64,000 bases of DNA from Tachypleus tridentatus. Lineage: Eukaryota. The notes beneath the pieces were generated by a model. It searched no databases. It was not told where the DNA came from and saw nothing but the letters and a program-made list of their open reading frames with translations. The stretch is taken from positions 98,825,522 to 98,889,521 of the forward strand of contig NC_134831.1 in assembly GCF_004210375.1 (NCBI RefSeq), in the 5' to 3' direction. Positions 4,903-56,622 of this stretch are shown piece by piece (position 1 is the first letter of the stretch; the number at the start of each line of letters is the position of its first letter). The position numbers and the translations under genes are program-made.

Positions 4903-5178
4903 AAGCGGCCCGGCATGACCAGGTGGCTATGGCACTCGACTCGTAATCCGTGAGTCGCGGGTTCGAATCCCCGTTTTACCAAACATGCTCGCCCTTTCAG
5001 CCGTGGGGCGTTATAATGTGACGGTAAATCACACTATTAGCTGGTAAGAGTAACCCAAGAGTTGGCTGTGGGTGGTGATGACTAGCTGACTTCCCTGCAG
5101 TCTTGCACTGATAAATTAGAGACTGCTAGCGCAGATAGCCCTCGTGTAGCTTTGCGCGAAACTCAAAACAAACCACGT
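4903..5178 (+). mobile_element. SINE family A copy (~270 bp, tRNA-derived)
   Basis: The head ggcccggcatgaccaggtggctatggcactcgactcgtaatccgtgagtcgcgggttcgaatcc carries an A-box-like TGGCCAGGTGG and a B-box/T-loop GGTTCGAATCC. The body reads gtcaatcccactattcgttggtaagagtagcccaagagttggcggtgggtggtgatgactagctgccttccctc. The tail reads gcgcagatagccctcgtgtagctttgcgcgaaa(c/t)tcaaaacaaa. Confidence 0.85.
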
Positions 5179-6391
5179 CTTATATCATCCTTGTAGTCTT
5201 CTGTCTTATTCTTTCGTCCATTTATAGCTGTCGAACCGCTTGATCGATTGCGAACACTTAAGAACACGACTTTCAAAGTTTTTTATGAAAACAGAAATCT
5301 CGGAAAGCGGAGTTTCAAAGTTAAAACTGTTCTGAAGCAACAACTGCGAAAGAGACCACTTCCCTACCCAAAAAAAAACACAGTAAACGCTACGATAATG
5401 TTAAACGTACCTTCTGGTACCGTTAACAAGACAATATACAATAATTTGTAAGTGACGGAAACTCAGGTTGTTAGCTACATCTGGAAATCAGCAGTTAGTC
5501 CAATAAACTAAAACACAACGATCCAGTTTGACCATATACTTTGACCACGTATGTCTTAATTTTTGGTTAAATGTAGGTGACCTCCAGTAAAAGGTCAATG
5601 GACAGTTTGTCAAGAAGTGTGGTTTAAAATAGATTTGATCGTTCGTTACAGAAGCTTGTTGAAAAATAAACTGGTGTTGGGTAATTATGGCCACCAGGTT
5701 TAGCAGCATCTGTAATGGAGTTCAAAGTGCATTTCAGTTCATTGTTCACATAAATATTGAATATCTCTGTTCATGCCTTTTCCTGGCCAATTTATTCTTA
5801 TTACACACCCGGCTCTCGTTTCATACGTACTGAAACCGTTTATCTGTCTGAATACATAACTTTAAACTTTTTTTCCAAACATGTTATGGAGCAACCCATT
5901 TGGAATACGTGGGTCATTTCAAAAACAAAACTGTATATTTTTGGAAGCATAGAAAAAATAAATGTACTCTAATATTTCAGCAACAAATATTCAGATTACA
6001 CGATTACAACTGCTTCTTCAACTCTGTTTAAATAGAAATTATTTCCCAGGGTAGGAATTGTAATTTTATAAACCATACATCGATTAAAATGTGCAATGAA
6101 ACGTATGTTTAAGTATTCTTTACTTTCCCTATTTTTTATCGTTAAACATTGTGTGTCATATTACCACTGTGAATATATCGGTGATATGTAGAACGTGTAT
6201 TATTGTAATTTTATTTTATTAACCATATAACTTCTTTCTTATACGGTGGTGTAACAAATGGACAGGCAGGAAGTAAGTGGAGAGGGAAAGAAACCATAAG
6301 ATAGATTTATAATCTTTACATCGGTAGTAAATAAGTTAAATCGGTAGCTGGGTATATGTTTAAGATGTATACAAGTTCTCTGAAATTTGTT

Positions 6392-6642
6392 TGTTTTGAA
6401 TTTCGCGCAAAGCTACTCGAGGGCTATCTGCGTTAGCCGTCCCTAATTTAGCAGTGTAAGACTAGTCATCACCACTCACCGCCAACTCTTGGGCTACTCT
6501 TTATCAACGAATGTGATTCACCGTAATATTATAACGCCCCCACAGCTCAAAGGGCGAGCATATTTGGTGCGACCGGTATTCGAACCCGCGACCCTCGGAT
6601 TACGAGTCGAACGCCTTAACACGCTTGGCCATGCCGGGCCGT
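6392..6642 (-). mobile_element. SINE family A copy
   Basis: Reverse complement of the family A consensus, running from tail (gaatttcgcgcaaagctactcgagggctatctgcg) to head (ggccatgccgggcc). Confidence 0.85.
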
Positions 6643-7960
6643 TCTCTGAAAGGAAAACGTACACTTCTCCGACATGCTAATTAAAGCTGCTAAGATATAC
6701 TAAAGCTTAGTGTGTTAGATTTAGGTAAGAAAGAAAGATTTTATTAAAACAGCACATAATTTCCAATGAGAGGCAAGATAAGATGAGTCACGACTCGTAG
6801 TAGATGAGTCATATTCATATGAAATAACTGTTGTAATGAAAGTTTTCTATCCGTTGCGGAAAATATATTCTAACAATGAGTTGAATGTTTATAATAATTC
6901 TAATCTCAGCCATTCCTGGGAACGAATATAGATGGTATAATAGCCGCATGTGTACTAACGTAATAATTCAGGCCTTCAGGTATATCTTTTGTCTCCTACA
7001 AGTCACTGCCAAAGATGCCTTTCGTTAGATGTTAGTTAGTTTAGCATGACAATGAGACAAGTTCACCAGAGACACTGTTCTTACATACAGTGTAGTGAGT
7101 TAAATTACGACTTGAAAGATGAAAATCACAGCTAGCGAAAAGTTCAATCTTTGTTAAAAGCAGAAAGTTAGCGAAACATTGAAATCTACTTTTTGGTTAA
7201 ATTACTTGTTGGAGATGTTTTCTTATTTTTGTTATGTTCCTCTTTAGGGATTTCATAACAGTTGGTGTGTAAAAACAGTATATGAATGAAAAACTACAAT
7301 AATGCCCTCGGTTTCTATTGTGAGAAACAATCCATGACATTGGCCTTAGAGATTCGAACAGTAAATGTTTTCTAAACGATGACCCTATCACGCGAGAAAT
7401 TTCCGTTTCGCTCGTAGTTCTGAAAATTGTTATTTGTTTTCAAATTATCTCGTGCTCTCTTCTGATTTACAAGAACTAGCACTGAAAATGTATTGAAATG
7501 CTAGATTTTCTTGGCAACACTGTTTTTATGTATTAAGTCTAACATTGTGCAAGACTTCCAAACAGAACTACGTCTAGCGAGTCTAACATTGCAACAGGAC
7601 TTCTGAAGCGGGAAACCAACTTATTAAATTGAGTTTTTACTTGGTTTTCTTTTTATTTATTTACAATGAAAAATAATGGAATTAGCCATATAAAAGATGC
7701 AATTAAAACAATCATTAACATGAATATATGTAAAAACTTAATTTTTGTTGCCATGGTGACCTGTTATACGATTTTAACAAGCGAGTTTATTCATTTAATT
7801 GGAAGAATATGTAGTTTCGGTCTCAATGGCAGCTTACCGACTCGCCAGCCAAACAGCTGGAGTTCCCTAGTCCAGTGAGCAGGCGAAAGATGGCCAGTTG
7901 TCAGCCGTAAGGGCTTTATCCATTTCGCCGAACCACATAATGAGATTGTCTAATAACGAG

Positions 7961-8165
7961 ACAACCTTGTTACTAACCAGCATGGCCAGGTGGTTACAAC
8001 CTTGTTACTAACCAGCATGGCCAGGTGGTTACAACCTTGTTACTAACCAGCATGGCCAGGTGGTTACAACCTTGTTACTAACCAGCATGGCCAGGTGGTT
8101 ACAACCTTGTTACTAACCAGCATGGCCAGGTGGTTACAACCTTGTTACTAACCTGTTTGGCCCAG
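7961..8165 (+). repeat. 35-bp tandem repeat (about 5.5 copies) built from the SINE A 5 prime head plus 16 bp of flank, fused to a full SINE
   Basis: The unit acaaccttgttactaaccagcatggccaggtggtt recurs at 7961, 7996, 8031, 8066, 8101 and 8136. The last unit runs directly into the SINE head cagcatggccaggtggttaaggcactcg at 8166. Confidence 0.85.
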
Positions 8166-8428
8166 CATGGCCAGGTGGTTAAGGCACTCGACTCGTAATC
8201 CGAGGGTCGCGGTATCGAATCCTCGTCACAAAAAACAGGCTCGCTCTTTCGGTCGTGAGGGCGTTATAATGTGACGGTCAAGACCACTGTCCGTTGGTAA
8301 AAGAATAGCCCAAGAGTTGGCGGTGGATGGTAATGACTAGCTGCCTTCCCTCTAGTCTTACAATGCTAAATTAAGGACAGCTAGCGCAGATAACTCTCGT
8401 GTAGCTTTAAGTGAAATTCAAAAAACAC
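8166..8428 (+). mobile_element. SINE family A copy
   Basis: Full head, body and tail (catggccaggtggttaaggcactcgactcgtaatccgagggtcgcggtatcgaatcc ... gcagataactctcgtgtagctttaagtgaaattcaaaaaac). Confidence 0.85.
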
Positions 8429-8689: not shown

Positions 8690-10920
8690 AAACTTTTGAA
8701 AAATTACTGTTAAGTCATAGCAACCAAACGGTACAGAAATATCATGTTTCTGTTTATTTAATAACTTTTGAAAAATCACTGTTAAGTCATAGCAACCAAA
8801 CGGTAGAGAAATATCATGTTTCTGTTTATTTAATAACTTTTGAAAAATCACTGTTAAGTCATAGCAACCAAACGGTAGAGAAATATAATGTTTCTGTTTA
8901 TTTAATAACTTGTGAAAAATCACTGTTAAGTCATAGCAACCAAACGGTAGAGAAATATCATGTTTCTGTTTATTTAATAACTTGTGAAAAATCACTGTTA
9001 AGTCATAGCAACCAAACGGTAGAGAAATATCATGTTTCTGTTTATTTAATAGCTTTTGAAAAATCACTGTTAAGTCATAGCAACCAAACGGTAGAGAAAT
9101 ATCATGTTTCTGTTTATTTACTAGCTTGTGAAAAATCACTGTTAAGTCATAGCAACCAAACGGTAGAGAAATATCATGTTTCTGTTTATTTACTAGCTTT
9201 TGAAAAATCACTGTTAAGTCATAGCAACCAAACGGTAGAGAAATATCATGTTTCTGTTTATTTACTAGCTTTTGAAAAATCACTGTTAAGTCATAGCAAC
9301 CAAACGGTAGAGAAATATCATGTTTCTGTTTATTTACTAGCTTTTGAAAAATCACTGTTAAGTCATAGCAACCAAACGGTAGAGAAATATCATGTTTCTG
9401 TTTATTTACTAGCTTGTGAAAAATCACTGTTAAGTCATAGCAACCAAACGGTAGAGAAATATCATGTTTCTGTTTATTTACTAGCTTTTGAAAAATCACT
9501 GTTAAGTCATAGCAACCAAACGGTAGAGAAATATCATGTTTCTGTTTATTTACTAGCTTTTGAAAAATCACTGTTAAGTCATAGCAACCAAACGGTAGAG
9601 AAATATCATGTTTCTGTTTATTTACTAGCTTTTGAAAAATCACTGTTAAGTCATAGCAACCAAACGGTAGAGAAATATCATGTTTCTGTTTATTTACTAG
9701 CTTTTGAAAAATCACTGTTAAGTCATAGCAACCAAACGGTAGAGAAATATCATGTTTCTGTTTATTTACTAGCTTGTGAAAAATCACTGTTAAGTCATAG
9801 CAACCAAACGGTAGAGAAATATCATGTTTCTGTTTATTTACTAGCTTTTGAAAAATCACTGTTAAGTCATAGCAACCAAACGGTAGAGAAATATCATGTT
9901 TCTGTTTATTTACTAGCTTGTGAAAAATCACTGTTAAGTCATAGCAACCAAACGGTAGAGAAATATCATGTTTCTGTTTATTTACTAGCTTGTGAAAAAT
10001 CACTGTTAAGTCATAGCAACCAAACGGTAGAGAAATATCATGTTTCTGTTTATTTACTAGCTTGTGAAAAATCACTGTTAAGTCATAGCAACCAAACGGT
10101 AGAGAAATATCATGTTTCTGTTTATTTACTAGCTTGTGAAAAATCACTGTTAAGTCATAGCAACCAAACGGTAGAGAAATATCATGTTTCTGTTTATTTA
10201 CTAGCTTGTGAAAAATCACTGTTAAGTCATAGCAACCAAACGGTAGAGAAATATCATGTTTCTGTTTATTTACTAGCTTTTGAAAAATCACTGTTAAGTC
10301 ATAGCAACCAAACGGTAGAGAAATATCATGTTTCTGTTTATTTACTAGCTTTGAAAAATCACTGTTAAGTCATAGCAACCAAACGGTAGAGAAATATCAT
10401 GTTTCTGTTTATTTACTAGCTTTTGAAAAATCACTGTTAAGTCATAGCAACCAAACGGTAGAGAAATATCATGTTTCTGTTTATTTACTAGCTTTTGAAA
10501 AATCACTGTTAAGTCATAGCAACCAAACGGTAGAGAAATATCATGTTTCTGTTTATTTACTAGCTTTTGAAAAATCACTGTTAAGTCATAGCAACCAAAC
10601 GGTAGAGAAATATCATGTTTCTGTTTATTTACTAGCTTTTGAAAAATCACTGTTAAGTCATAGCAACCAAACGGTAGAGAAATATCATGTTTCTGTTTAT
10701 TTACTAGCTTTTGAAAAATCACTGTTAAGTCATAGCAACCAAACGGTAGAGAAATATCATGTTTCTGTTTATTTACTAGCTTGTGAAAAATCACTGTTAA
10801 GTCATAGCAACCAAACGGTAGAGAAATATCATGTTTCTGTTTATTTACTAGCTTGTGAAAAATCACTGTTAAGTCATAGCAACCAAACGGTAGAGAAATA
10901 TCATGTTTCTGTTTATTTAA
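8690..10920. repeat. 72-bp satellite, about 31 tandem copies
   Basis: The exact period is 72 bp (aaaaatcact at 8771 and again at 8843). The unit is tcactgttaagtcatagcaaccaaacggtagagaaatatcatgtttctgtttatttactagcttttgaaaaa, with the variants ttttg/ttgtg and taataact/tactagct. Because 72 is divisible by 3, the tandem copies stay in frame, and this is the sole source of the long ORFs at 8636-10291, 8671-10368 and 10345-10938. Confidence 0.95.
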
Positions 10921-11260: not shown

Positions 11261-12318
11261 TCATATGAAGACGCAAACAAATATGGCTAATGATCGTCTA
11301 AGAATAGCAAAAGGCACAACCTTTCTTTGAATAGAACATACTCCGCAGTAGTCATGACGCTCTACTCATTCCATATGCTTTAATCTCAACGAAAATTCTC
11401 ACAATTTCTTAAGAATGCAACCTGCTTGTTGACTTACCCCCACAGCTGTAACTTGAGGTATGTACACTGAAGGGAATCCTTGAACCCTCTTGTTTTTAGA
11501 TACGTGCAATCTGCGCATTTTTGCATCTGAACATATTGTTATTTTAACATTTTCTCGGGACTCCTCAAAGCAAATTACAGGTTGGCGGAATGTAAAGAGA
11601 TTCAACCACAATAAAAGGTCTCACGGCCGAGCTTCTGGTCGTCATGGACCAGTAAGCAAGAAATTCGCTCGTTAAGAAGGAGGGGGGGAATACATCAGTG
11701 ATGCTTTAAGAGAGTCGTGAAAAATGTATCATATCAGAATATTTTTAATTGCTCAGTAACACTAAAACTTTGGTATCTAGCGGAAAGGTACAACAAACAA
11801 AAGATCAGGTTACTGTGAAGAGAGAACCAGGTTAGTGTAAACTTAAGCCTATTTTCGATTCCTTTTTTTTTTTTTTTTTATCTATAACTAATATATTGCA
11901 CGCATTTAGTTCTGCTGTATTGTGTTTATGTTCGTACGTAGAAGTATCATAAACAGCAGTGATGAAGTGAGGAAATATTAATCATTATAATTATATGTAC
12001 GATATCATGCACTAGTGTTAATGTCCATTTCGTATTGACCACAAATAACTTTGCAAAACGAAGATGCGTGGGTATACGTCAATGTCGAAAATATTCTGTA
12101 TGTTTTTTTGTTTTTTTGAGAGTCGACTGTGTATTTATAAATGATCCGAGGTCGTTGACAGTGCACAACTGTTAACATTTTTCTTCATGTTCGTCTTTTA
12201 CCCAATCTAACAAAATGAAAATAACGAAACCGTGAATTCATCAACTAAGACTATGCTTTCTACGTTCACCAAGTGGTGGCGCTTACAATAAAGTTTGCTC
12301 TCGATTCTTCAGTACTAG

Positions 12319-12592
12319 TCCCGGCATGGCCACGTGGTTATAACACTCAACTCTTAATCTGAGGGTCGTGGGTTCGAATCCCCATCAAACCAAACATACT
12401 CGCCCTTTCATTCGTGGGGGCGTTATATTGTTACAGTCAATCCCACTATTCGTTGGTAAAAGAGTAGCCCAAGAGTTGGCGGTGGGTGCTGATGACTAGC
12501 TGCCTTCCCTCTAGTCTTACACTGCTAAATTAGGGACGACTAACGCAGATAGCCCTCGAGTAGCTTTGCGCAAAATTCAAAACAAACAATCC
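12319..12592 (+). mobile_element. SINE family A copy
   Basis: cccggcatggccacgtggttataacactcaactcttaatctgagggtcgtgggttcgaatcc ... cgcagatagccctcgagtagctttgcgcaaaattcaaaacaaaca. Confidence 0.85.
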
Positions 12593-15761: not shown

Positions 15762-18448
15762 AAGGTAATAATCTATTAGTAGCATCACACTGCTTACCAG
15801 ATGTCAAAATATAGTTCTGATCAATAATCTATTAGTAGCATCACACTGCTTACCAGATGTCAAAATATAGTTCTAATCAATAATCTATTAGTAACATCAC
15901 ACTGCTTACCAGATGTCAAAATATAGTTCTGATCAATAATCTATTAGTAGCATCACACTGCTTACCAGATGTCAAAATGTAGTTCTAATCAATAATCTAT
16001 TAGTAGCATCGCACTGCTTACCAGATGTCAAAATGTAGTTCTAATCAATAATCTATTAGTAGCATCGCACTGCTTACCAGATGTCAAAATGTAGTTCTAA
16101 TCAATAATCTATTGGTAGCATCGCACTGCTTACCAGATGTCAAAATGTGGTTCTGATCAATAATCTATTAGTAGCATCACACTGCTTACCAGATGTCAAA
16201 GTGTAGTTCTAATCAATAATCTATTAGTAGCATCACACTGCTTACCAGATGTCAAAATGTAGTTCTAATCAATAATCTATTAGTAGCATCACACTGCTTA
16301 CCAGATGTCAAAATGTAGTTCTAATCAATAATCTATTAGTAGCATCACACTGCTTACCAGATGTCAAAATGTAGTTCTAATCAATAATCTATTAGTAGCA
16401 TCACACTGCTTACCAGATGTCAAAATGTAGTTCTGATCAATAATCTATTAGTAGCATCACACTGCTTACCAGATGTCAAAATGTAGTTCTAATCAATAAT
16501 CTATTAGTAGCATCGCACTGCTTACCAGATGTCAAAATGTAGTTCTAATCAATAATCTATTAGTAGCATCGCACTGCTTACCAGATGTCAAAATGTAGTT
16601 CTAATCAATAATCTATTGGTAGCATCGCACTGCTTACCAGATGTCAAAATGTGGTTCTGATCAATAATCTATTAGTAGCATCACACTGCTTACCAGATGT
16701 CAAAATGTAGTTCTGATCAATAATCTATTAGTAGCATCACACTGCTTACCAGATGTCAAAATGTAGTTCTAATCAATAATCTATTAGTAGCATCACACTG
16801 CTTACCAGATGTCAAAATGTAGTTCTGATCAATAATCTATTAGTAGCATCACACTGCTTACCAGATGTCAAAATGTAGTTCTAATCAATAATCTATTAGT
16901 AGCATCACACTGCTTACCAGATGTCAAAATGTAGTTCTGATCAATAATCTATTAGTAGCATCACACTGCTTACCAGATGTCAAAATGTAGTTCTGATCAA
17001 TAATCTATTAGTAGCATCACACTGCTTACCAGATGTCAAAATGTAGTTCTGATCAATAATCTATTAGTAGCATCACACTGCTTACCAGATGTCAAAATGT
17101 AGTTCTGATCAATAATCTATTAGTAGCATCACACTGCTTACCAGATGTCAAAATGTAGTTCTGATCAATAATCTATTAGTAGCATCACACTGCTTACCAG
17201 ATGTCAAAATATAGTTCTGATCAATAATCTATTAGTAGCATCACACTGCTTACCAGATGTCAAAATGTAGTTCTGATCAATAATCTATTAGTAGCATCAC
17301 ACTGCTTACCAGATGTCAAAATATAGTTCTAATCAATAATCTATTAGTAGCATCACACTGCTTACCAGATGTCAAAATGTAGTTCTAATCAATAATCTAT
17401 TAGTAGCATCACACTGCTTACCAGATGTCAAAATATAGTTCTAATCAATAATTTATTAGTAGCATCACACTGCTTACCAGATGTCAAAATATAGTTCTAA
17501 TCAATAATCTATTAGTAGCATCACACTGCTTACCAGATGTCAAAATGTAGTTCTGATCAATAATCTATTAGTAGCATCACACTGCTTACCAGATGTCAAA
17601 ATGTAGTTCTCATCAATAACCTATTACTAGCATCACACTGCTTACCAGGTGTCAAAATGTAGTTCTAATCAATAATCTTAGTAGGATCACACTGCTTACC
17701 ACATGTCAAAATATAGTTCTAATCAATAATCTATTAGTAGCATCACACTGCCAACCATATGTCAAAATGTAGTTCTAATCAATAATCTATTAGTAGCATC
17801 ACACTGCTTACCAGATGTCAAAATGTAGTTCTAATCAATAATCTATTATTAGCATCACACTGCTTACCAGATGTCAAAATGTAGTTCTAATCAATAATTT
17901 ATTGGTAGCATCACACTGCTTACCAGATGTCAAAATGTAGTTCTAATCAATAATCTTAGTAGCTTCACACTGCTTACCAGATGTCAAAATATAGTTCTAA
18001 TCAATAACCTATTAGTAGCATACACTGCTTACCAGATGTCAAAATGTAGTTCTAATCAATAACCTATTAGTAGCATACACTGCTTACCAGATGTCAAAAT
18101 ATAGTTCTAATCAATAACCTATTAGTAGCATACACTGCTTACCAGATGTCAAAATGTGGTTCTGATCAATAATCTATTAGTAGCATCACACTGCTTACCA
18201 GATGTCAAAATGTAGTTCTAATCAATAACCTATTAGTAGCATCACACTGCTTACCAGATGTCAAAATGTAGTTCTGATCAATAACCTATTAGCAGCATCA
18301 CACTGCTTACCAGATGTCAACATGTAGTTCTGATCAATAATCTATTAGCAGCATCACACTGCTTACCAAATGTCAACATGTAGTTCTGATCAATAATCTT
18401 TTTGTAGCATCACACTGCTTACCGGGTGTCAAAATATAGTTCTAATAT
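15762..18448. repeat. 56-bp satellite, about 48 tandem copies
   Basis: The period is 56 bp (cttaccagat at 15961 and again at 16017). The unit is tcaataatctattagtagcatcacactgcttaccagatgtcaaaatgtagttctaa, with the variants a/g (aaaatatag or aaaatgtag), ctaatc/ctgatc and catcacac/catcgcac. Copies become progressively more diverged toward the 3 prime edge (17600-18448). Confidence 0.95.
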
Positions 18449-19089
18449 TTGTCATTCCTCTACGATTATATTGGCTCTGGTTGTCGCGTAACTTGCTGAT
18501 TTGCATATTCAAAATATTTTTCGTATAACTTATTCAACCTTCTACATATACAGTATATGGTGGTTAAGGTCTCTGTCATATATAAACACACTAATGTTTT
18601 TTACCTGCATATACTAATATAGAATTTTTCAGAATTGTTATTTTTCATACCATTTTGGTAAAAAAAAAAGTTAAATTATTTTCACTTCTTCGAGTACCCA
18701 CTGTACAGTCACCTGTGCAGAGTAACACATTGTCTTCTCATTTGCAAAATGTAAGGTGTTGTTTTTCCACTGTAAAGGTAACGATTTCTCTTGTATTTCA
18801 TTGTGGAAATTGGAATCACTAGTCACGTGTATAATGCTAGTTGCTCTCCTGGACTTTTGTTAATGGTGTAAATGGATATTTAGATTTTTTTTAAATCTAC
18901 ACATGTAGATGAACGTTTGACACGTAAGTTGTTTTACATCACATTTTCAATAAATTTTTGATATGAGTTCTCGAATTTTGAACGTTCCTGTAAAACAAAG
19001 GACAAAACGTTGTCCTACTGGCCAGTGTAGTTTTTCTCATCCTAGTGTTTCTCCAGGTATTTACTGCGCTGAATGATGGAAGGTTTTTT

Positions 19090-19348
19090 TCTTTTTGAAT
19101 TTCGCACAAAGCTACACGCCGACTATCTGCGCTAGCCGTCTCTAATTAGCAGCGTAAGACTAGATGGAAATCAGTTAATCATCACCACCAACTCTTAGGC
19201 TACTTTTTCCAACGAATAGTGGACTTAACCGTCACATTATAATGCCCCCACGGCTGAAAGGACAAGCATATCTATGACGGGGATTCGAACCAGCGACCCT
19301 CGCATTACGAGTCTCGCGCCCTAACCACCTCACTGGCCATCCTGGGCC
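19090..19348 (-). mobile_element. SINE family A copy
   Basis: Reverse complement from tail (gaatttcgcacaaagctacacgccgactatctgcgctagc) to head (gggattcgaaccagcgaccctcgcattacgagtc ... ggccatcctgggcc). Confidence 0.85.
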
Positions 19349-19352
19349 GATG

Positions 19353-19520
19353 CTGGAAGGATACGTACAATTCATTGACGTCGTCAAGTGTTCTGAAGCT
19401 GATTCCTCTGGAAGGATACGTACAATTCATTGACGTCGTCAAGTGTTCTGAAGCTGATTTCTCTGGAAGGATACGTACAATACATTGACGTCGTCAAGTG
19501 TTCTGAAGCTGATTCCTCTG
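19353..19520. repeat. 55-bp tandem repeat, 3 copies, abutting the SINE head
   Basis: ctggaaggatacgtacaattcattgacgtcgtcaagtgttctgaagctgattcctct recurs at 19353, 19408 and 19463. Confidence 0.8.
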
Positions 19521-21939
19521 GTGTTGCAGGTAATCCATGCTCGGTGTGAAGGTGAAAGACAACTAAGTTATTATCAACTCCATACTGGGAACGTGACTAT
19601 TCTCTGGAAAATTGTTTTGGACCGTTGCCCAAATTGTCGTAACGTATTCTTTTTTCTTTAAGATTAACAATTGGATAATCGAGACACTATAATACAATCA
19701 AATTGATGTGATTGTTTTTACTAAGGTAGTTAAAATAAGACAGTTTGCCTTACTTTTGTGATTGAAATCTACTTTTGAAATGGTGTATAGTATATCTAGA
19801 TATGGTAAATAACAACCAACGATTATTACCATTTAGTAAGTCACAGGTATTCCACAGATTAACTAGTTCCTGAGAGGTAAGATCGAGGCAAGAAACTTAC
19901 CCTTTGATTCAGAGACAGTTTTTTCATGATTATTCGAACACTTCTTTTGATTTTATCAATTATGGTTAAGATTTGATATAGTATTTGTATTTTACCACAT
20001 GGTATTTTCATTATGAAGTTTTAGATGGTTTTAGTTTTATGTATTGTTTATTCAGAAATTTTCAAATTAAATATTTCTTCCTGTTATCTTAGTATATACA
20101 AAATTGTTTGTTTTGGACACAATTCTTGAAGTACATATTTTTTAGCAAAATGCTCCATCTTGTCTCGCTGTATGTCATTGATCGAGATGACACCTCGTGG
20201 TGCGTTGTCTTTCAACTGTATCTGTACAGTTTACCATATCTTACACAAAAACTGTCCACAGATTCCGAGCCCCTCTTTCTGGGTCTACAAGTTTAATGAA
20301 ACCATTCAGAATCCAGGTTTTTAAAACAACCAGTGTTGATAATTTTAAGAAAAGTTTTGTAACAAGAGAAGTAAGCCTCAAGAGGTCGCAGTGAAGAGTT
20401 GGTAATGTACAGTATTAATGATTGTAATAACGTGTGATGTTATGTAGTGACTTGGTTAAAAACGTGTGATGATATATCTTGATTTGTAGTTGTACTGAAA
20501 GTAGTTAGGATTACAATGTCAGACTTCCTTCGCAGCGTTAACTGTGTGCTGCGACTGATAGGTAAATAACGTGAACATGTATCTGTTTTATTGTAGTAAT
20601 CCGTTAAGGTTTTAGTCGGGTAGATAATTCACAATACTTATTCATACAGTGCTTCTATCAGTAAACATTTGTACACGTGTATATTAATACCAATAATATA
20701 ATTCTCCTCATGACGTAACAGTCAGTTCCTTTGTGTGTGGAGTTTTGTCTCGTACTATTAAAGTGTTGTATATGTGCATGTTTTATTTTACCGTTATCAA
20801 AGGTTTTACTTTACTTACATTCAAATGTTTGTATTTCTATTCATTGTATTTCATTTTCCTATAAATATTTTCTATAACAATTTATTTTGTAAGAATATTT
20901 TTATAGTGTTGTTTTTCATCTTGTTATGGAGATTTCTGTGTATTATCTTATGTAATACAGTATACATTATGGTTGAATAGGGGTTTCGTTTCTGTTCTCT
21001 TGCAACCACTTGTTTTTTTAACTTAGAACACTTCGCCTTTTGAAGGGTCAATTTTGACATCTCGAGCTGTGGTATCAACATTAGAATTTTTGTATGGTAT
21101 TACTGTTGGTTATTCCGACTGACCATATTACATATCCACTTTTACTTAACTCGTCAGTTTTATTTTAAAGGTTATTTTTTATCTGTAATCACTGTTAACG
21201 TGTTTTCATTCGTTAAATGGCGTTTGTGAGGTTGCACTCGTGATTTTCTTAAAGGGTTTCAGCTGTAATGATTTAATGATTTTTTTTCTATCTAAAGAAC
21301 TGTTCTCTGTTCTTGTAAGTGTGAAAGAAAACTAAACCACAATTTAATTAATATGGTTTTGTAAACTTTATTGAATTTAAAGTTAAAATTAACTGTTACT
21401 TGTGGACAAACCTGAAGGAAAGATGAGAGTATTGTATGAACTAACCATCTTTTTTGCTGAGTTCAGTTGGTATTACTTGAAAACTACGTGTTATCGCTAA
21501 AATGACTCACTTGTCAGTTTGCTATGTTGTGTGTGGAAAGTTTACCTCTCCACTTGATGGTTCAGCAATATGTCTGACAGCTTATGTTACAAATTTGGTT
21601 TCGGTGCTCATGGTTGGCAGAGCACATATGGTTCATTGTGTAGCTTTAATTCGCAACAAGCGAGCGCACAAAGCATTTAAAATGTATTTCATTAAAACAG
21701 TAAAATGTGCAGTAGCTTAAAACCAAATAAAGGACTTAAGGTTCCCACAATGTATTTCCAATCATCATACGTATTCATATTGCGTTTAATTATGTATGTT
21801 TTTATATGGTATAATACCAGTGCACTATCACAAAAACAAAACAAAGCTGAAATACAGTGAATCAAGGAAAGTGGTTATTGAATCATTTTGTCACTGACAA
21901 GGGTAAAAGGAAACTTGTCATTAATGCATCTTTAAAGTA

Positions 21940-22200
21940 AGACTAAAACGTTTGCACAGTTTTGTTTTCGTACAAAGCTACTCGAAAAGGTTTAAGTGTC
22001 AAAAACGATAGACTAGAAGAAAGGCGGACAGTCAATATCACTTGCTTTTAACTCTTGTGATACTCAAATCAGATAGTGGGATAGACTATCACATTATGAC
22101 ACTAACAGTTGAAAGGACAACATGCTTGAAGGTGAAATTTATACCTGTGACCCACAATTTGAGTTTCACACTAACTTCCAGGCCCTGCCAGACTCGCTTG
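21940..22200 (-). mobile_element. old degraded SINE A-like copy
   Basis: gttttcgtacaaagctactcgaaaagg ... cacattatgacactaacagttgaaaggacaacatgcttg parallels the reverse complement of the SINE A tail and body (cacattataacgcccccacggctgaaagggcgagcatg). Confidence 0.35.
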
Positions 22201-39224: not shown

Positions 39225-39560
39225 GTTTAGAAAGGCATGATGCATACAATACAACTTGTATAATTAGAAAGGCATGATGCATACAATACAACTTGTATAA
39301 TTAGAAAGGCATGATGCATACAATACAACTTGTATAATTAGAAAGGCATGATGCATACAATACAACTTGTATAATTAGAAAGGCATGATGCATACAATAC
39401 AACTTGTATAATTAGAAAGGCATGATGCATACAATACAACTTGTATAATTAGAAAGGCATGATGCATACAATACAACTTGTGTAATTAGAAAGGCATGAT
39501 GCATACAATACAACTTGTGTAATTAGAAAGGCATGATGCATACAATACAACTTGTGTAAT
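39225..39560. repeat. 37-bp tandem repeat, about 9 copies
   Basis: ttagaaaggcatgatgcatacaatacaacttgtataa is repeated with period 37 (aaaggcatga at 39231 and again at 39268). The last copies carry tgtgtaa instead of tgtataa. Confidence 0.9.
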
Positions 39561-41065: not shown

Positions 41066-41297
41066 CGCCCTGCATGGCCCATCGTAATCTGAGGGTCTCG
41101 AGTTCGAATCCCAGTAACAACAAATACACCCGCCCTTTGGGGGCATTATAATGTGACGGTCAATCCCATTATTCTTTGGTAAAAGAGTTGGCGGTGGGTG
41201 GTGATGACTAGCTACCTTTCCCTCTAGTTTTACACTTAAATTAGGGGCGGCTAGTAGCCATCGTGTAGCTTCGCGCGAAATTCAAAAACATACAGAA
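41066..41297 (+). mobile_element. SINE family A copy (diverged, small deletions)
   Basis: ctgcatggcccatcgtaatctgagggtctcgagttcgaatcccagtaacaacaaatacacccgccctttgggggcattataatgtgacggtcaatccc ... gtagccatcgtgtagcttcgcgcgaaattcaaaaaca. Confidence 0.8.
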
Positions 41298-43268
41298 ATT
41301 GCGGAATGACAAAAAAAAAAATACTGAACTTAGTTTTACCCATTTAAAGGTGTGTATAAAACAGGCGTCGCTAGGTGCTTACAAGGTTCGAGGGTCGAGA
41401 CCATAGGCGCGGGAATTTCCGGCGTTTCAGTATGATATTGGTTATGGTTTCTTATTCTGATTTTCAGAGACAACTGGATATTCGAGGGCACGTGTACCAT
41501 ACTTAAGTTAACTCTAAAGCATAACATGTCTTTTAAATCTTGAAAAACCTAGCTTTAACGTTTTCTTGTTGTCATAATAATTCTATAGAAGTGAATGTTT
41601 TCTGTCGAATGAGGCTGGCTGTCGTAACGAATAGCCCAAGATAAAATGTTTCTCGCCGTAAATTATACTTGCTTCAAATTGAAGACGGGCAACTGAGTTT
41701 GTCACAGTTTATTGACAAAGTGTTTAACACATGTTAAGGAAACATGAGGTGACAAAGTAATACAGTGAGTTCCGAACTGACTGTAGCCAAAATGGCGCTC
41801 GGGATGCAATAAATAATTTGTCGCCCTATAAATGTTTCATCATCTTTATTTGATTTTTTTCACTTTGTTAACGTGGTATTTCAGTTTCTCAACGTTTTCA
41901 CACCATTTCAACAGTACTACTGTTAAAATAGCGTGTGGGCGTGTACATGAAGTCTATCTAAAACTAGGACTTAACCACAGATACTACTGGGCTCTTTTTA
42001 GGCATGTCTTAAGGATCGCATTAATGCAACTTTTGTAATTTGTACGAGGGGCTCTTGACGCCCCCAATACAGTTGCGTCCTGTCAGTAGCCTTCTTGCTT
42101 TGTCTGTAAAATATTCTTTGTTAATCTGATGACTAAACGTAATGTGTCCAAGTGGCCTCAACTTCTGTTGTATTATAATAATACATCGGTGCTGGGTTAA
42201 TTTTTCTCCTGACTGGGCAGTTCGAACGAGTGATTGACAGTGTTAGTCCATCATATGTTCCCCTTTAGAATTTAGCTATTACTGTACACAGTTTATTCAA
42301 AAGCTCTCATAAATTAAACAAAACTTACTGATTTATAGGGAGTTTAGCTGCCTGACTCTGAATTCCTTACAAAGTGGTGGCAGAATTTCTTTATATGACG
42401 CAAGAATAAAATAATTCCATCTTGGTTTTATATCTTGAGTTAAATACAACAAAAACTGTTTACAATAATATGTATGGAGTAAGATCTTGGATCTTACTGA
42501 ACTGTGTCAACAGACATGTAGACAGGACCGTACAAACTAAACGGTCAGTTCGTAGGCCCTATAGTCTTGAACCACTGCTCCATCACTTGAACTTACCACT
42601 GCAAAGGCAGTAAGTTAGCAGTACCCGCCACGCAAGGGATTTGTCCATCTTTTTAAACCGGATAATTGTTCCCTATCAACAACTCAGCTATAGCTGAAAG
42701 TGTGGAATCGCCTTTCAGACTAAAGACCACGCGATCTGCAACCAAGGACATTAATCCCTAGATCAGACGTACATGTTGGGATATGTACAAAAATATACGA
42801 GTAACCAATATTAATTTCCCATTTTACTGTCACAAGTCGGTTTTCTGAAGGAGGGTGAGAGAAAGATCTATTTCCATGGTACGTTCGTCCATTTAAAAAA
42901 CAATGTATGAATAGTTGGTCCACTTAAACAATTCATGAATACACACGCATGTGGTGTGTTGTGAACCTAATCGAATTTTAAGTTAACTTTTGTTAACGAT
43001 CGTGGTTTAACTTCCCCCACTCTTCCACATAAACCATTAAATCCGATTAACCACGACTTTTATGGTGAGTATCCAACTGTACTCACGAACGTTAAAGGCA
43101 GTGCTGAGGTCAGAGTAACTTGTTCTCAAACTGTCGAATTAAAACTGGATTCACTGTTTGTGGCGAGAGATAAGGAGGGTACGTTACAATAAGCTGGTGA
43201 GTGTATGTTGTACGTACTTAGAATAGGTCAAAATATACAGTGTGTGTGTATTAATTTCAACTTACATA

Positions 43269-43307: not shown

Positions 43308-43309
<2 letters not shown>

Positions 43310-43582: not shown

Positions 43583-43853
43583 CATTTTGGTTAAAGTTGA
43601 AGGCACTCGTCTCGTAATCTGAGGGTCGCGGGTTCTAATCCCCGTCACACCAGACATGCTCGCCCTTTAAGCTGTAGTGGCGTTATAATGTTACGGTCAA
43701 TTCCACTATTCGTTGGTAAGAGTAGCCCAAAAGTTGGGGGTGGGTGGTGATAACTAGCTGCCTTCCCTCAAGTCTTTGCTAATTTAGGGATTGCTAGCAC
43801 AAATAGCCCTCATGTAGCTTTGCGCGAAATTCAAAAACAAACAAACAAACAAG
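43583..43853 (+). mobile_element. SINE family A copy with a (caaa)n tail
   Basis: ggttaaagttgaaggcactcgtctcgtaatctgagggtcgcgggttctaatccccgtcacaccagacatgctcgccc ... gcacaaatagccctcatgtagctttgcgcgaaattcaaaaacaaacaaacaaacaag. Confidence 0.85.
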
Positions 43854-46480: not shown

Positions 46481-46822
46481 AAAATACTTATCTTAATTAG
46501 CATTACGAAAAGTTGAAAGAATGCATCTTTTGAAGTTTCGTGTTACTCATGTTTATAGCTTTGGTCATCGTACTGGTCATCTTTGTTTATGTATTATTTT
46601 TTTAATCTGCCTTAAAGATAGGCTGTCTGTGCAACGTAATTGCCCGGAATCGCAAGATTTTTAGGGCATCACTTTAAATTACTGTTCACCCACGTCACTG
46701 TTTGGGTCTCACCTGTAGTAACCTTTATAATACAGGAGGGCATGATTGTTGTGTCACAAATTAGGCTTTGTTTATAAAACCAGTGCATCATTGATGACGA
46801 GAAACCCACTTGTTGAGAGATT

Positions 46823-46934
46823 TATATGCAAAACGGCTCGTTTGGGCTGAAAACACTTTTACATAGAAGGTCGAAACGTTGTTCGCTCTTCTATGTAAAA
46901 GTGTTTTCAACCCAAACGAGCCGTTTTGCATATA
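46823..46934. repeat. ~112-bp near-perfect palindrome (47-bp perfect arms, 18-nt partly self-complementary loop) flanked by a 16-bp direct repeat
   Basis: Left arm tatatgcaaaacggctcgtttgggctgaaaacacttttacatagaag (46824-46869). Loop gtcgaaacgttgttcgct. Right arm cttctatgtaaaagtgttttcaacccaaacgagccgttttgcatata (46888-46934). The direct repeat tataaaaccagtgcat lies at 46784-46799 and 46932-46947. Confidence 0.9.
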
Positions 46935-47569
46935 AAACCAGTGCATGTTATCTTTAGAACAATAAGCTACCGTTTATTTGAAGGACGATATTCACGTGGC
47001 ACGCACAACAAAACATCTCAGTTGTTCACTCAGGACTCGTTACTGTATCTCAAGCACTTTGAATTGAGTGTTTTGGCGAATCAAAATATTTTAACTGTCT
47101 AAAACAATTCCAATCAAAATAGCCGATTCAAACAAATGTAATGATTTAATTGTATTAAGGGCGTAATGATAAATACTTAAAGCTTAGTCTTTATAACTGA
47201 TTTTTCTAGCTGTTTTCGTGCTTGTTATCTTTCGTATATATAACTTGAACAAATGTTTGTTTGGACAGCCAAAATTAACTTAAAATGTCATTTTATAGTT
47301 TTAACTGGTGTTTCTACATTTATCTCGAATTAGAAATCTACGTTCCACCCTTCAGTTTTTTTTTTTACAAGGTTTTTCATTCCAAAAACATATACGTGAC
47401 AGTTACTTTATAAATTGATTATTCAGTATAATCATTAAACATTTTGTGAAGATCGCTTCTCACCTTGTTCACAAAATACATGTGTTATGTGATTAGTGTC
47501 GCGAAATTCTACAAAAGTAAGATCAGTGTATTAATTTTAAGAACATTTCGAAAACGTCTACGGATTTAC

Positions 47570-50704: not shown

Positions 50705-50920
50705 TTTAATCCGAGGGTCGCGGGTTCGCGCCCGCGTCGCGCTAAACATGCTCGCCCTCCCAGCCGTGGGGGTGTATAATGTGACGGTCAATCCCACTAT
50801 TCGTTGGTAAAAGAGTAGCCCAAGAGTTGGCGGTGGGTGGTGATGACTAGCTGCCTTCCCTCTAGTCTTACACTGTAAATTAGGGACGCCAGCACAGATA
50901 GCCCTAGTGCAGCTTTATGA
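50705..50920 (+). mobile_element. SINE family A copy, 5 prime truncated
   Basis: Starts inside the head (taatccgagggtcgcgggttcgcgcccgcgtcgcgctaaacatgctcgccc) and runs through gacgccagcacagatagccctagtgcagctttatg. Confidence 0.8.
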
Positions 50921-53515: not shown

Positions 53516-53623
53516 GTTGTGGAACTTTTGAATCGATGTACCTGCCCTTTCCAGTTCCCAATGATTAGAGTATCAGATGGGAAATATCGCATTGGAGACA
53601 CAAAAACTCTCATTTTTGTTAGG
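53516..53623 (+). CDS. GAS2-like protein: GAR (GAS2-related) domain exon, N-terminal half
   Basis: The acceptor is ccacatatctttcAG|gttgtgg (AG at 53514-53515). Translation VVELLNRCTCPFQFPMIRVSDGKYRIGDTKTLIFVR matches the GAS2 GAR domain (CKCPNKFCVERLSQGRYRVGEKILFIR). The donor is AGG|GTGAGT (GT at 53624-53625). The exon is in phase 0 at both ends, which is compatible with the phase-0 end of the 4059-4732 exon. Confidence 0.8.
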
Positions 53624-54574
53624 GTGAGTACTACCGCCATCTAGTAGCGATAACTGTCACTACATTGTTCGTTTTAAATATTACATAACTCGTTTTCCTT
53701 TTTTTGATGTATAATTTATGGGTATATACGTTTACATAAAACATCCGCATACAATTTCACTTAAAGTGTAATGAAGCTACAGTTCAACAGTTACCACAAG
53801 TGACTGAAACAACTTATTTTATTCGAAACAAATCAGAACTAGTGTACTTTCTGTATAGCCTATTTTGTTAACATCCAAATCGGTTACCAATAAGATATAT
53901 TTTTTACCTTAAAGGCATACTTGGTTCGCCCGTTTTTTGTTTCTTTACGCCCACGGACGATGTGTATGTACTATTACTAGGTTATTTAAAACCGTACCCA
54001 ATGATACAAGTTTTCTAGTGCCTTTTATGTAAAACTAATTAAATATAAACATTTTGATGCGTCGTAAAATGTCCAGATTTCTTTGGCTTCTGAAAATCTA
54101 AAATGCTTGGTATGGATTTATTTACGCTATCGATTCTGGTTCATTTATTGGCTGTGTATGTAGGATTATTGTATGTTTTGAAATGATTTTAAAAAGGACA
54201 AAGTAGGACATGCCAGAAGATATGTCCCCGAGGGGATGTGGTTCCGCTTCGTATTTTAATTATTTATACAGATTTTAATGCTAATGAAATTTCAGTGGAA
54301 AGACAGTATGTATATGCTGTTGCCACATTTCTACCTTCAGTATATGGGTTGGCAATAAAAAGTATGCAAGAATGTTTGGGCGGAGCAACTTTCTTAGCGG
54401 GCTAAACGCTGTGAAGAACCCGTATGAACCCGTCACGTGATGTGCATTTTCGTTTTTATATTGTTTCACTTGTGACATGGATTGTATACCACAGTACTCA
54501 AAATTTAGTGCTATTAACTGCAATTTTGATTTTAGTACAGTTAAAAATTATTCCGAAAGCTAGTTTCTAATCAA

Positions 54575-54700
54575 CTCAAAGGGGGGGATTCCTCAGTAGG
54601 TTAGAGGTAAGTGTACGGACTTGTAATGCCAAAATATAGGTTTCGATTCCCCGCGGTGGACAAGAGTGCAGATAATCCATTGCGTAGCTTTCCATAAGAA
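54575..54700 (+). mobile_element. SINE family B copy, tRNA-Ala-like
   Basis: ggggggattcctcagtaggttagaggtaagtgtacggacttgtaatgccaaaatataggtttcgattccccgcggtggacaagagtgcagataatccattgcgtagctttccataag. Its 5 prime end and T-arm resemble tRNA-Ala (GGGGGTGTAGCTCAGTGGTAGAGC ... GGGTTCGATCCCCGGCACC), but the anticodon arm does not fold canonically. Confidence 0.55.
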
Positions 54701-56357
54701 AACGGAAGAACATAGCGAACTATGGGAAGGAAGTCATTATAAAGTAATTTCAGTGTTAGTTCTCGAAATTTTCGAGTAAACTGACTTCAGATCTGTCTAC
54801 GCACAGCCGTCTCTAATGTTGAACTGGAGAGAAGATTGAATACTGGGGATCGACCGTCATTATCGTAGCGCAACCACTGACACAAAGTGGGGAGCACGAT
54901 TGGTTTTTACCATGTTAAGTAAGATCTGACCCCAAATACTTCTGAGGGTAGCCCTTTCTTCTCTCTCTATTCCTTGGTACTTAAAGGGTAGGGATAATAT
55001 GTGAGTGAAAGTTTCAAACACATTATGGTAGTTAAATAGGATATTTCAGCACACAGCAGAGTTCCAGGCTGAAATTAAGGGTAGGCAATATAAGCGGATG
55101 TCTAGGGCGTCACATACATCGAGTACCCTTAGTCGATGCAATAGGCACAAATTAAGGTTGTGCTTTTTAATCACAAAGCTGTTTTCAGTCCTGCACAGTT
55201 CCTGTTGGTCAATTCGGTCCGAAGGAATCATTATATTTGTGCATTCTAAACAGAAGTTACACAATGGGTCGTGTGTTGTGTCTATCACAGAGTATCAAAC
55301 CACAAATTTTGAACATAACCCACCAACCTTAATGCCGAGTCATCGAAGGGCGTATTTATAGGTATATTTGAAGGATGGAATTTGGAAGGAAATGTAAGAG
55401 GTGTTTCAGTCCGTCTTTGTGTATTTCACTTAAAAACTATAAAAATGTTCTAGTTTATGTATTGTTGGCAGCAGTGCAAAACATAAAACTATACGCGCAA
55501 AATGCAAATAAAATATTTAAATTAGAACTGTTTGCTCATAATTAAACTATTTAATATTTGTAATTTAGTGACCATTAGTTTAACTTCTGTTAGGCCAAGA
55601 AACCCTGAATATTGTGCGAAAATAAACAGAAAACCTCTGTTCAAAATTAACTTCCAAATGAATTGTAAGATATCAGGTGTATTAATTAAAACCTGCCGAT
55701 TACCTGTGGTGCCAATGTTTACTTGGGGCGCCAGTCGGCGGTAGAGATGAAAGTGTATTGTGGCTATGAGAGATTTGCAGCCTTGTATAGTAATCACTTT
55801 TGAATTTTTTCCTTCTTCAAAGATACAAAAAATGTCGAATCTGCGTGTGACCTTTTCACCTTCGTTTTGCTCCACTACGCGCAGCAGATTCTGCTGTCCA
55901 TTTTGTTTCTGTACATACGAATGGATGAAAGTTCTCCGTGACGGGAAACGGAGGCGAAACTGGAAAATCGTGACCCCTATAGCAAATCTACATGAAAGTC
56001 TGATAAAAAAATGTCTCGAAGTTGGGGGTTTCACGTCACGTGACTTAAAGTTTTTTCACTATCATACATGTAAAAGCAAGGGTTTCATTTTTGTATATTA
56101 AACTCTACGTTTTACTGACTATCTGTTTCCTTCTTATTGGCAAGTTAAACCAAGATGATCACCTTACAAATATCTTACTACAGTTTGGGGTCAGAATATT
56201 AAATAGCATAAATGCAATATAAATATTAACTGCAAAAACAAAGCAAAAAGTCCTTAAGTATGTTAATCTAATACCTAAAATTTCAATTAACAGTTCAACT
56301 GCACTAGACTGACACTTACAAGCACAGAATAGTCGATATTTTATCTTCCAGACAGGT

Positions 56358-56622
56358 ATGGCATGACAAAGTCAGGGAATTCGACTCGTAATCTGAGGGG
56401 TCGTGGGTTCGAATCCCCTTCCCACCAAACATGTTCATCTTTCCAGCCCTGGTCAAGTTATATAAAGTTACGGTTAATCCTACTCTTCGTTGGTAAAAGA
56501 AACCCAAGAGTTGGCGGTGGGTTGTGATGACTATCCGCCTTTCCTCTAGTTTTTCACTGCTGAGTTCGGGACGGCTAGCGCAGATAGCCCTCGTGTAACT
56601 TTGGGCAAGATTTAGAATATAC
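56358..56622 (+). mobile_element. SINE family A copy (diverged), intronic, ~250 bp upstream of the second GAR exon
   Basis: atggcatgacaaagtcagggaattcgactcgtaatctgaggggtcgtgggttcgaatccccttcccaccaaacatg ... ggctagcgcagatagccctcgtgtaactttgggcaagatttag. Confidence 0.8.

Follow-up and report, generated by a model that had tools for sequence, protein, structure and literature searches.

What is the repeat of about 270 bp that recurs in the introns of a GAS2-like gene of horseshoe crabs, and does the orientation of its copies carry any meaning for that gene? The repeat, here called family A, was taken in the preliminary description for a tRNA-derived SINE with A and B boxes, present in about 15 copies and mostly oriented as the host gene. 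The window, which is the whole 64-kb stretch of horseshoe-crab DNA analysed here, was examined together with two Limulus polyphemus loci.

Copies of family A and the host gene

The host gene is encoded on the plus strand, with the following exons.

4059-61261, plus strand: host gene, GAS2-like 'pickled eggs' homologue
4059-4756, plus strand: exon (CH domain)
53561-53626, plus strand: exon
56878-56973, plus strand: exon
58500-58583, plus strand: exon
59894-61261, plus strand: exon

Family A is represented in the window by 15 dispersed copies, 11 on the plus strand and four on the minus strand, and by one marginal fragment. Its sequence makes up 5.7% of the window. BLAST searches, first with a single copy as the query and afterwards with the consensus, recovered all 15 copies of the preliminary description on the strands listed there, and the coordinates were right to within a few bases. 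An 18-mer across the B box, GGTCGCGGGTTCGAATCC, occurred 13 times in the window when up to three mismatches were allowed, against 0 occurrences expected from shuffles. The consensus derived from the window is 272 nt long, and the element itself measures about 265-272 bp.

4907-5175, plus strand: full-length copy (consensus 1-269), 90% identity to the consensus
6386-6640, minus strand: full-length copy with a perfect 11-bp TSD (GTTCTCTGAAA on the plus strand) at 6375-6385 and 6641-6651
8159-8424, plus strand: full-length copy, its 5' end adjoining a 35-bp-unit minisatellite at 7961-8153
12318-12589, plus strand: full-length copy, 91% identity to the consensus
19084-19348, minus strand: full-length copy with a 12-bp TSD (10/12 identical) at 19072-19083 and 19349-19360
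22010-22100, minus strand: marginal body fragment (consensus 105-198), 70% identity, absent from the preliminary list
31901-32078, plus strand: copy 3'-truncated at consensus position 179, 93% identity
34170-34442, plus strand: full-length copy, 85% identity
36378-36626, plus strand: copy with a degenerate 5' end, 82% identity, forming an inverted pair with the next fragment
36772-36911, minus strand: fragment (consensus 16-155), 74% identity
37459-37702, plus strand: copy with an internal deletion, 78% identity
38700-38896, minus strand: copy 5'-truncated at consensus position 74
41066-41289, plus strand: copy whose head has lost an internal stretch, with a 10-bp TSD (9/10 identical) at 41056-41065 and 41290-41299
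43583-43851, plus strand: copy of 90% identity, its head degenerate and its tail (CAAA)4
50705-50917, plus strand: 5'-truncated copy reaching from about consensus 38 to about 248, with the variant B box GGTTCGCGCCC
56358-56624, plus strand: copy of 84% identity in the intron between exons 53561-53626 and 56878-56973

Every copy is intronic in the GAS2-like gene, and 14 of the 15 lie in its first intron of about 49 kb. The flanks of the copies are unrelated, and stops interrupt each of the six frames of the consensus. Head, body and tail sequences agree with those given before, the 5' end GGCCCGGCATGG being placed about 5 nt upstream of the head quoted there. The body is a non-coding stretch of about 150 nt between the head and the 3' module.

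Family A was also found in two independent L. polyphemus contigs (KI896516.1 and KI897778.1). About eight further copies or fragments lie in 42 kb of Limulus DNA, and the younger ones are 93-96% identical to the window-derived consensus. Identity to the consensus ranges from 74 to 93% for the window copies (K2P 0.07-0.30), so no copy in the window is near-consensus. Near-consensus copies, with 96% identity, occur in the Limulus loci only.

Three tandem arrays with units of 35, 55 and 50 bp were observed at SINE junctions in the window. The unit of the 35-bp minisatellite at 7961-8153 includes ~18 nt from the start of the SINE head, and the array adjoins the copy at 8159. The 'half-head' upstream of this copy had been considered as a dimeric subfamily, and this was rejected because it is that minisatellite. 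The 5' junction of the copy at 19084-19348 runs into a minisatellite of 55-bp units at 19353-19521. The arrays are a small example of tandem arrays seeded by SINE ends. The window also holds a Tc1/mariner remnant at 30444-31251 and a palindromic MITE-like hairpin at 46822-46935.

The tRNA-like head

The first ~75 nt of family A are a degenerate tRNA, in which the D-arm and the T-arm carry an A box (positions 10-20) and a B box (positions 54-64). The A box, TGGCCAGGTGG, departs from TRGCNNAGTGG at a single position; for the B box, GGTTCGAATCC, the match to GGTTCGANNCC is exact. The spacing between the two boxes is 33 nt. The Rfam tRNA model (RF00005, gathering score 29) aligned with the head of a young Limulus copy at 23.7 bits (E=0.014, model positions 8-63) and with the window copy at 8159 at 15 bits. 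Scores below the gathering score are expected for the head of a SINE. The alignment covers the D, anticodon and T arms, and the acceptor stem is absent. When the whole window was scanned with Rfam at E<=1, no copy had a tRNA match; the sub-threshold alignment is visible in scans of short stretches only. Family A had no match to 5S, 7SL or any other small-RNA family in Rfam. ARAGORN with default settings detected no tRNA in any copy of the window or of the Limulus loci, and with the threshold lowered to 80% the consensus yielded a cloverleaf whose register was different (Ile/AAT). No TTTT terminator occurs in the consensus.

Conservation of the boxes was also determined among the dead copies of family A. 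The values are 0.87 for the A box, 0.91 for the B box and 0.87 for the whole element, so the boxes are hardly better preserved than the remainder of the sequence. Such a small difference is expected of neutrally decaying insertions, and the SINE model is not refuted by it. The earlier assignment to tRNA-derived SINEs is supported by the Rfam alignment of the head, the spacing of the boxes, the lack of TTTT and of terminal inverted repeats, the TSDs of variable length and the tail common to a second SINE.

The 3' module and insertion signatures

The last ~50 nt of family A are a conserved module, AGCGCAGATAGCCCTCGTGTAGCTTTGCGCGAAATTC, that could form a short interrupted hairpin. The 3' terminus reads AAATTCAAAA(CAAA)n and has one to four repeat units, so the tail described earlier is a variable (CAAA)n. 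The hairpin was paired in 86.5% of cells compared with 19-56% in slid controls. One compensatory difference, G-C to A-U, separates family A from the second family described below, and this support is a single event inherited by many copies.

TSDs adjoin the element ends in three window copies (11/11, 10/12 and 9/10 bp) and in three Limulus copies (9-12 bp), one of which is 5'-truncated at consensus position 56. Their observed scores were 11-12, whereas the 95th and 99th percentiles of the cross-paired control were 7 and 9.6. The TSDs have no fixed sequence and vary in length from 9 to 12 bp. A recognisable TSD is absent at several full-length copies, which is expected from their age yet weakens the TSD count. 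Copies are often 5'-truncated. Terminal inverted repeats were not found, the best identity between the ends of family A being 20%.

Family B and the partner LINE

A second SINE of about 125 bp, here family B, has a different tRNA-like head and shares the 3' module with family A. It matches consensus positions 222-271 of family A at about 84% identity. Its draft consensus of 133 nt consists of the element of about 125 nt and a few flank bases.

2368-2488, minus strand: family B copy with the different tRNA-like head and the family A 3' module
25566-25971, plus strand: family B copy, the 3' part expanded to a tandem array of seven 50-bp units at 25621-25971
58974-59060, minus strand: family B copy, in the first BLAST search a 'tail-only' match of family A
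59264-59365, plus strand: family B copy, inverted relative to the preceding one

In one Limulus locus, family B is inserted in a family A copy and consensus positions 130-139 are duplicated. Each occurrence of the tail in the 106 kb comprising the window and the Limulus loci belongs to family A or B. Unrelated heads joined to the same 3' module suggest that both families probably use the same LINE. A partner LINE sharing the tail, which the preliminary description proposed to look for, was not found in these 106 kb: the Pfam scan of the window and the two Limulus loci, covering 104 of 108 ORFs of at least 75 aa with four minisatellite reading frames excluded, gave no reverse transcriptase or endonuclease ORF. 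Neither a body 21-mer nor the shared tail motif had any match in metagenome scans, and a search of a protein collection with the longest reading frame of the consensus likewise gave 0 matches. The published label 'tRNA-RTE' of the dominant horseshoe-crab SINEs makes an RTE-clade LINE the prime candidate for the partner of both families.

Relation to the CORE-SINE Lipo

Whether family A is already known under another name was considered with Lipo, a CORE-SINE of L. polyphemus that is 265 bp long, begins with a tRNA-related head carrying A and B boxes, and has an AT-rich tail (Luchetti & Mantovani 2016, Curr Zool 62:667, PMC5804259). Identity of the two would place family A in the CORE-SINE superfamily, in which the body holds the ancient CORE domain, and would change its classification and not its mechanism. 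We regard this identity as evenly balanced. The two are alike in the Limulus lineage, in length (265 against about 265-272 bp), in the type of head with its boxes and in the AT-rich 3' end, and family A is the most abundant SINE of its size in both Limulus contigs sampled. However, Lipo is defined by its CORE domain, and none was detected in family A, although Lipo itself was compared by description only and the CORE comparator was an approximate MIR sequence. With this query, Smith-Waterman alignment of the MIR CORE to the family A body was not above shuffled controls. BLAST of this core against the window and the Limulus loci had a best E of about 1, and the family A profile HMM detected no similarity to it above controls among 1000 decoys. 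Similarity among the COREs of invertebrates is only about 63% (PMC5804259). A V domain was also looked for; by eye there was a resemblance to the central region of DANA, but the family A profile did not pick out an approximate DANA sequence from 2000 decoys. A literal match of four family A fragments in literature text gave nothing.

Orientation relative to the host gene

The count of 11 sense and four antisense copies given in the preliminary description is right, with the host gene on the plus strand. Its reading as a meaningful bias is not borne out: the two-sided binomial test gave p=0.12 for the 15 intronic copies and p=0.21 with the marginal minus-strand fragment included. The genic copies in the Limulus paralogue loci are 2 sense versus 3-5 antisense, and pooling them with the window copies gave 13/20 (p=0.26) or 13/22 (p=0.52). 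If the excess of 11 among 15 were real, family A would be tolerated or selected in the transcribed orientation, for example because of antisense splice or polyadenylation signals or because of a functional sense copy. With the statistics above, this explanation is quite unlikely. The ratio had also been called opposite to the usual antisense bias of intronic retroposons. In introns it is mainly LINE and LTR elements that show a strong antisense bias, and for SINEs the bias is weak. Therefore, 11:4 is not clearly opposite to any expectation.

DNA transposon or tRNA gene

A MITE or another non-autonomous DNA transposon with a tRNA-like segment by chance would belong to the largest repeat class of horseshoe crabs, the DNA elements (PMC7815833), and the Tc1/mariner remnant (30444-31251) and MITE-like hairpin (46822-46935) are present in the same window. 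However, the ends of family A are at most 20% identical as terminal inverted repeats, the TSDs are variable (9 to 12 bp) without a fixed sequence, the 3' end is a variable simple repeat, and 5'-truncated copies carry TSDs. A DNA-transposon identity is thus effectively refuted and has only a very small chance of being right. Least likely of all is that the copies represent tRNA genes, tRNA pseudogenes, or the products of segmental or tandem duplication. This reading draws on the perfect B box and the good D arm of the head and is refuted by the anatomy of the element: the head lacks an acceptor stem, ARAGORN makes no tRNA call in either the window or the Limulus loci, and every copy has the same ~200-nt non-tRNA body and tail between unrelated flanks.

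Origin and meaning of family A

Overall, family A is very likely a tRNA-derived SINE of horseshoe crabs (Xiphosura), a non-autonomous retroposon of about 270 bp. Judging from the promoter boxes, Pol III would produce the RNA from a master copy. A partner LINE may supply the reverse transcriptase, which would recognise the 3' module and its repeat in trans. Target-primed reverse transcription would then copy the RNA at a nick in the target DNA and leave TSDs and 5' truncations. The window copies are intronic insertions that are old and in decay, and nothing points to a function for them.

As a SINE, family A is ordinary; earlier publications already document this class in horseshoe crabs and how abundant it is there. 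A wider proposal is unlikely, namely that the two families together make up a SINE system specific to Xiphosura and undescribed at the sequence level, with a hairpin-(CAAA)n read stringently by one LINE, a genome-wide sense preference in introns and minisatellite seeding at the junctions. The result has little importance beyond annotation. The 272-nt consensus of family A and the 133-nt draft of family B can be used for masking these introns, and the shared 3' module is a precise query for the partner LINE. Dated insertions, scored for presence or absence, could be markers for ordering the whole-genome duplications and species splits of horseshoe crabs.

Comparison with known systems

Nong et al. 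(2021, PMC7815833) counted 345,070 and 364,667 SINE elements in two horseshoe crabs, which amount to 3.34% and 3.57% of the respective genomes. 'tRNA-RTE elements' are the largest SINE class in Carcinoscorpius rotundicauda and Tachypleus tridentatus (PMC7815833). This class is tRNA-headed like family A, and its abundance fits the family A density of 5.7% in the window. However, SINE/tRNA-RTE is a class label from an automated library without a consensus (PMC7815833), and the likeness is by class description only. MIR/Ther-1 and other tRNA-derived SINEs are generally known to share the modular structure, the internal Pol III promoter, the old and diverged intronic copies and the CpG decay of family A, whereas the approximate MIR sequence has no detectable similarity to it beyond the tRNA-related head.

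SINE pairs with a common LINE-derived 3' tail are recognised in the 'stringent' manner, through a 3' stem-loop and a terminal short repeat, as in UnaSINE1/UnaL2 of the eel. This model of stringent LINE recognition of SINE tails was reportedly reviewed by Ohshima and Okada in 2005. Unlike in that system, no LINE with the tail of families A and B was found in the 106 kb, and their hairpin is backed by one compensatory change. They resemble it in the common 3' end of about 50 nt, in the potential hairpin, and in a short tandem repeat, (CAAA)n, in place of poly(A).

Copies and consensus of family A

The repeat that the preliminary description had called family A, a tRNA-derived SINE of ~270 bp, was regained as described there. 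BLAST searches, first with a single copy and later with the consensus, recovered all 15 listed copies on the same strands and one extra marginal fragment at 22010-22100 (-). An 18-mer over the B box occurred 13 times in the window (≤3 mismatches) and never in 100 shuffles. The head quoted for the copies was correct as far as it went; alignment with flanks in MAFFT placed the true homology start at GGCCCGGCATGG, ~5 nt further upstream, and the 3' end at AAATTCAAAA(CAAA)n. The majority consensus of 272 nt is GGCCCGGCATGGCCAGGTGGTTAAGGCGCTCGACTCGTAATCTGAGGGTCGCGGGTTCGAATCCCCGTCACACCAAACATGCTCGCCCTTTCAGCCGTGGGGGCGTTATAATGTGACGGTCAATCCCACTATTCGTTGGTAAGAGTAGCCCAAGAGTTGGCGGTGGGTGGTGATGACTAGCTGCCTTCCCTCTAGTCTTACACTGCTAAATTAGGGACGGCTAGCGCAGATAGCCCTCGTGTAGCTTTGCGCGAAATTCAAAAACAAACAAA. 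The window copies are 74–93% identical to it (K2P 0.07–0.30), with faster decay at CpG sites (mean identity 0.82 vs 0.88 elsewhere), and occupy 3,620 bp, or 5.7% of the window.

Family A is also present in two Limulus contigs carrying host-gene paralogues, KI896516.1 (L001) and KI897778.1 (L002). Relative to the consensus built from the window, identity is 96% and 93% for two full-length copies in L002 and 96% for a 5'-truncated L001 copy. The close copies in two contigs indicate that family A is genome-wide in at least Limulus. Since the K2P values of these young copies are 0.02–0.04, the family was active in Limulus more recently than any insertion in the window. The two youngest, L002 6677-7023(+) and 13870-14185(-), are preceded by an identical 27-nt leader, ACAACTAGCACTACTTTACTTCTTTAA. 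Ahead of the leader, one of the two has a head with an internal deletion that keeps the A and B boxes. They may stem from a local duplication, or belong to a subfamily that is composite or arose by read-through.

Anatomy and class of family A

The Rfam tRNA model aligned with the young L002 copy at positions 8-63 (23.7 bits, E=0.014) and with window copy 8159 at 15 bits, both below the gathering score of 29. The aligned part of the L002 head comprises the D, anticodon and T arms; the acceptor stem is absent. No other small-RNA family in Rfam matched the head, and ARAGORN called no tRNA in any copy. The A box TGGCCAGGTGG departs once from the canonical consensus, while the B box GGTTCGAATCC, 33 nt away, is perfect. 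Neither TTTT nor terminal inverted repeats were found in the consensus, and all six of its frames are interrupted by stop codons. Target-site duplications (TSDs) abut the element ends of three window copies:

6375-6385/6641-6651, TSD of copy 6386-6640(-), 11/11
19072-19083/19349-19360, TSD of copy 19084-19348(-), 10/12
41056-41065/41290-41299, TSD of copy 41066-41289(+), 9/10

Three Limulus copies also bear TSDs, one of them truncated at consensus position 56. The observed TSD scores were 11–12, against 9.6 for the 99th percentile of cross-paired controls. The tRNA-like head, the A and B boxes, the lack of TTTT and terminal inverted repeats, and the TSDs together uphold the reading as a tRNA-derived, LINE-dependent SINE. 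This combined anatomy rules out that the repeat is a MITE, a satellite or a cluster of tRNA genes. The boxes, said earlier to be shared by the copies, are intact in the consensus and young copies; in dead copies their conservation (A 0.87, B 0.91) is barely above the element mean (0.87), as neutral decay predicts. The mechanism would be a conventional one: Pol III would transcribe from the head, a LINE would recognise the tail, and new copies would be inserted through target-primed reverse transcription.

Family B and the shared 3' module

The apparent tail-only fragments belong to a second, shorter SINE of ~125 bp, family B (draft consensus 133 nt, a few flank bases included):

2368-2488, -, window
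21612-21657, +, window
25566-25676, +, window
58974-59060, -, window
59264-59365, +, window
1366-1492, 1700-1828, 6937-7058, 7083-7186 and 19139-19220, L001
4598-4659 and 6329-6449, L002

Its head differs from that of family A and is tRNA-like (…CAGTGGCACAGCGGTATGTCTGCGGACTTACAACGCTA…GGGTTTCGATACCCG…), with an A-box-like motif TGGCACAGCGG and a B-box-like motif GGTTTCGATACC, and gave no Rfam tRNA model match at E≤10. Its 3' module of ~50 nt and (CAAA)n tail are those of family A (consensus A 222-271, ~84% identity), with the pattern AGCRCAGATAGCCC(N2-4)GTGTAGCTTTGYGC...(CAAA)n. An interrupted 8-bp hairpin is possible in this module; among 24 tails of both families, 86.5% of cells were paired vs 19–56% with slid partners. 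At the third pair, family A has G-C where family B has A-U, a single compensatory event that is at most suggestive of the hairpin. At L001 2250-2643(-), a family B copy (2392-2498) is nested within family A, with consensus 130-139 (~10 nt) duplicated. Therefore, both families insert by one and the same TSD-generating mechanism, and that family B insertion is the later of the two.

Host gene and orientation

The host gene, a GAS2-like 'pickled eggs' homologue, has a calponin-homology (CH) domain in ORFs at 3954-4768, and tblastn placed these exons:

4059-4756, +, exon
53561-53626, +, exon
56878-56973, +, exon
58500-58583, +, exon
59894-61261, +, exon

In a collection of 5.8 billion proteins, the large 3' ORF (59927-61264) matched only four, every one from a horseshoe crab. 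'GAS2-like protein pickled eggs' of Limulus polyphemus ranked first (63% identity) and a protein of Tachypleus tridentatus second (57%). These matches identify the window as xiphosuran DNA, and its gene probably represents an ohnologue other than those annotated. To keep matching the Tachypleus protein (…FITWCR/…), the CH-domain exon has to shift frame by 1 nt within a G run (TGTAGGGTCTC, ~4446-4451), which points either to an assembly error in the homopolymer or to decay of this ohnologue.

All family A copies are intronic, 14 of 15 within the ~49-kb first intron. The count of 11 sense to 4 antisense copies was correct, but the excess of sense copies was not significant (two-sided binomial p=0.12; 11/16 and p=0.21 with the marginal minus-strand fragment). 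Genic copies at the Limulus paralogue loci are skewed the opposite way, and the pooled count is 13/20 (p=0.26) or 13/22 (p=0.52). Family A thus has no significant orientation bias. The proposed contrast with the usual antisense bias of intronic retroposons is not established either, as it is mostly LINEs and LTR elements that show a strong antisense bias in introns. Family A shows no sign of function in the window. Two inverted SINE pairs, 36378-36626(+)/36772-36911(-) of family A and 58974-59060(-)/59264-59365(+) of family B, the latter ~500 bp 5' of the last exon, could form long pre-mRNA hairpins.

Minisatellites and other repeats

Three near-perfect minisatellites are made from SINE ends:

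7961-8153, 35-bp unit x 5.5, 100% match, directly 5' of copy 8159; unit is the first ~18 nt of the family A head plus flanking sequence
19353-19521, 55-bp unit including the TSD-bearing flank next to the 5' end of copy 19084-19348(-)
25621-25971, 50-bp unit x 7, from the family B 3' part

Long minisatellites of very high homogeneity (96–100% matches) are unusually abundant in the first intron. Further arrays in the window are:

8693-10919, 72 bp x 31, with spurious ORFs >500 aa on both strands
15767-18446, 56 bp x 48
24259-25341, 77 bp x 14
27786-28189, 103 bp x 3.9
39227-39562, 37 bp x 9
58161-58466, 61 bp x 5

A Tc1/mariner transposase remnant (30444-31251, -; HTH_Tnp_Tc3_2 and DDE_3, split over two reading frames) is consistent with Tc1 as the reported main DNA-element class of horseshoe crabs. 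Against Rfam MIR1888 (gathering score 72), both strands of a nearly perfect palindromic hairpin of ~114 nt at 46822-46935 scored 57–59 bits; a MITE-like inverted repeat is a likelier reading of this hairpin than a conserved miRNA.

Comparison with known horseshoe-crab SINEs

Of the 108 ORFs of ≥75 aa in 106 kb of window and Limulus contigs, 104 were scanned, and none matched a reverse transcriptase or an endonuclease. Within these 106 kb, each tail motif is part of a SINE body, either of family A or of family B. The literal family A sequence had no match in the paper texts searched, and neither metagenome scans for the element nor a protein collection searched with the translated consensus gave any match. 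With approximate comparator sequences, neither a CORE domain (MIR comparator) nor a V domain (DANA comparator) was detected in family A, which is assigned to no conserved-domain superfamily. 'Lipo' from Limulus polyphemus is a 265-bp CORE-SINE with a tRNA head (Luchetti & Mantovani 2016, PMC5804259); compared by description only, it has roughly even chances of being family A. Nong et al. 2021 (PMC7815833, supplement) list 364,667 SINE elements (3.57%) for T. tridentatus and 345,070 (3.34%) for C. rotundicauda, the largest class being 'tRNA-RTE elements'. This label points to an RTE-clade LINE as the leading candidate partner of families A and B. With 15 copies in 64 kb, escape from published de novo libraries is very unlikely. 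As a kind of element it is therefore known already, and this particular family almost certainly is too. Family A is a real, rightly recognised horseshoe-crab SINE of the ordinary tRNA-derived type.
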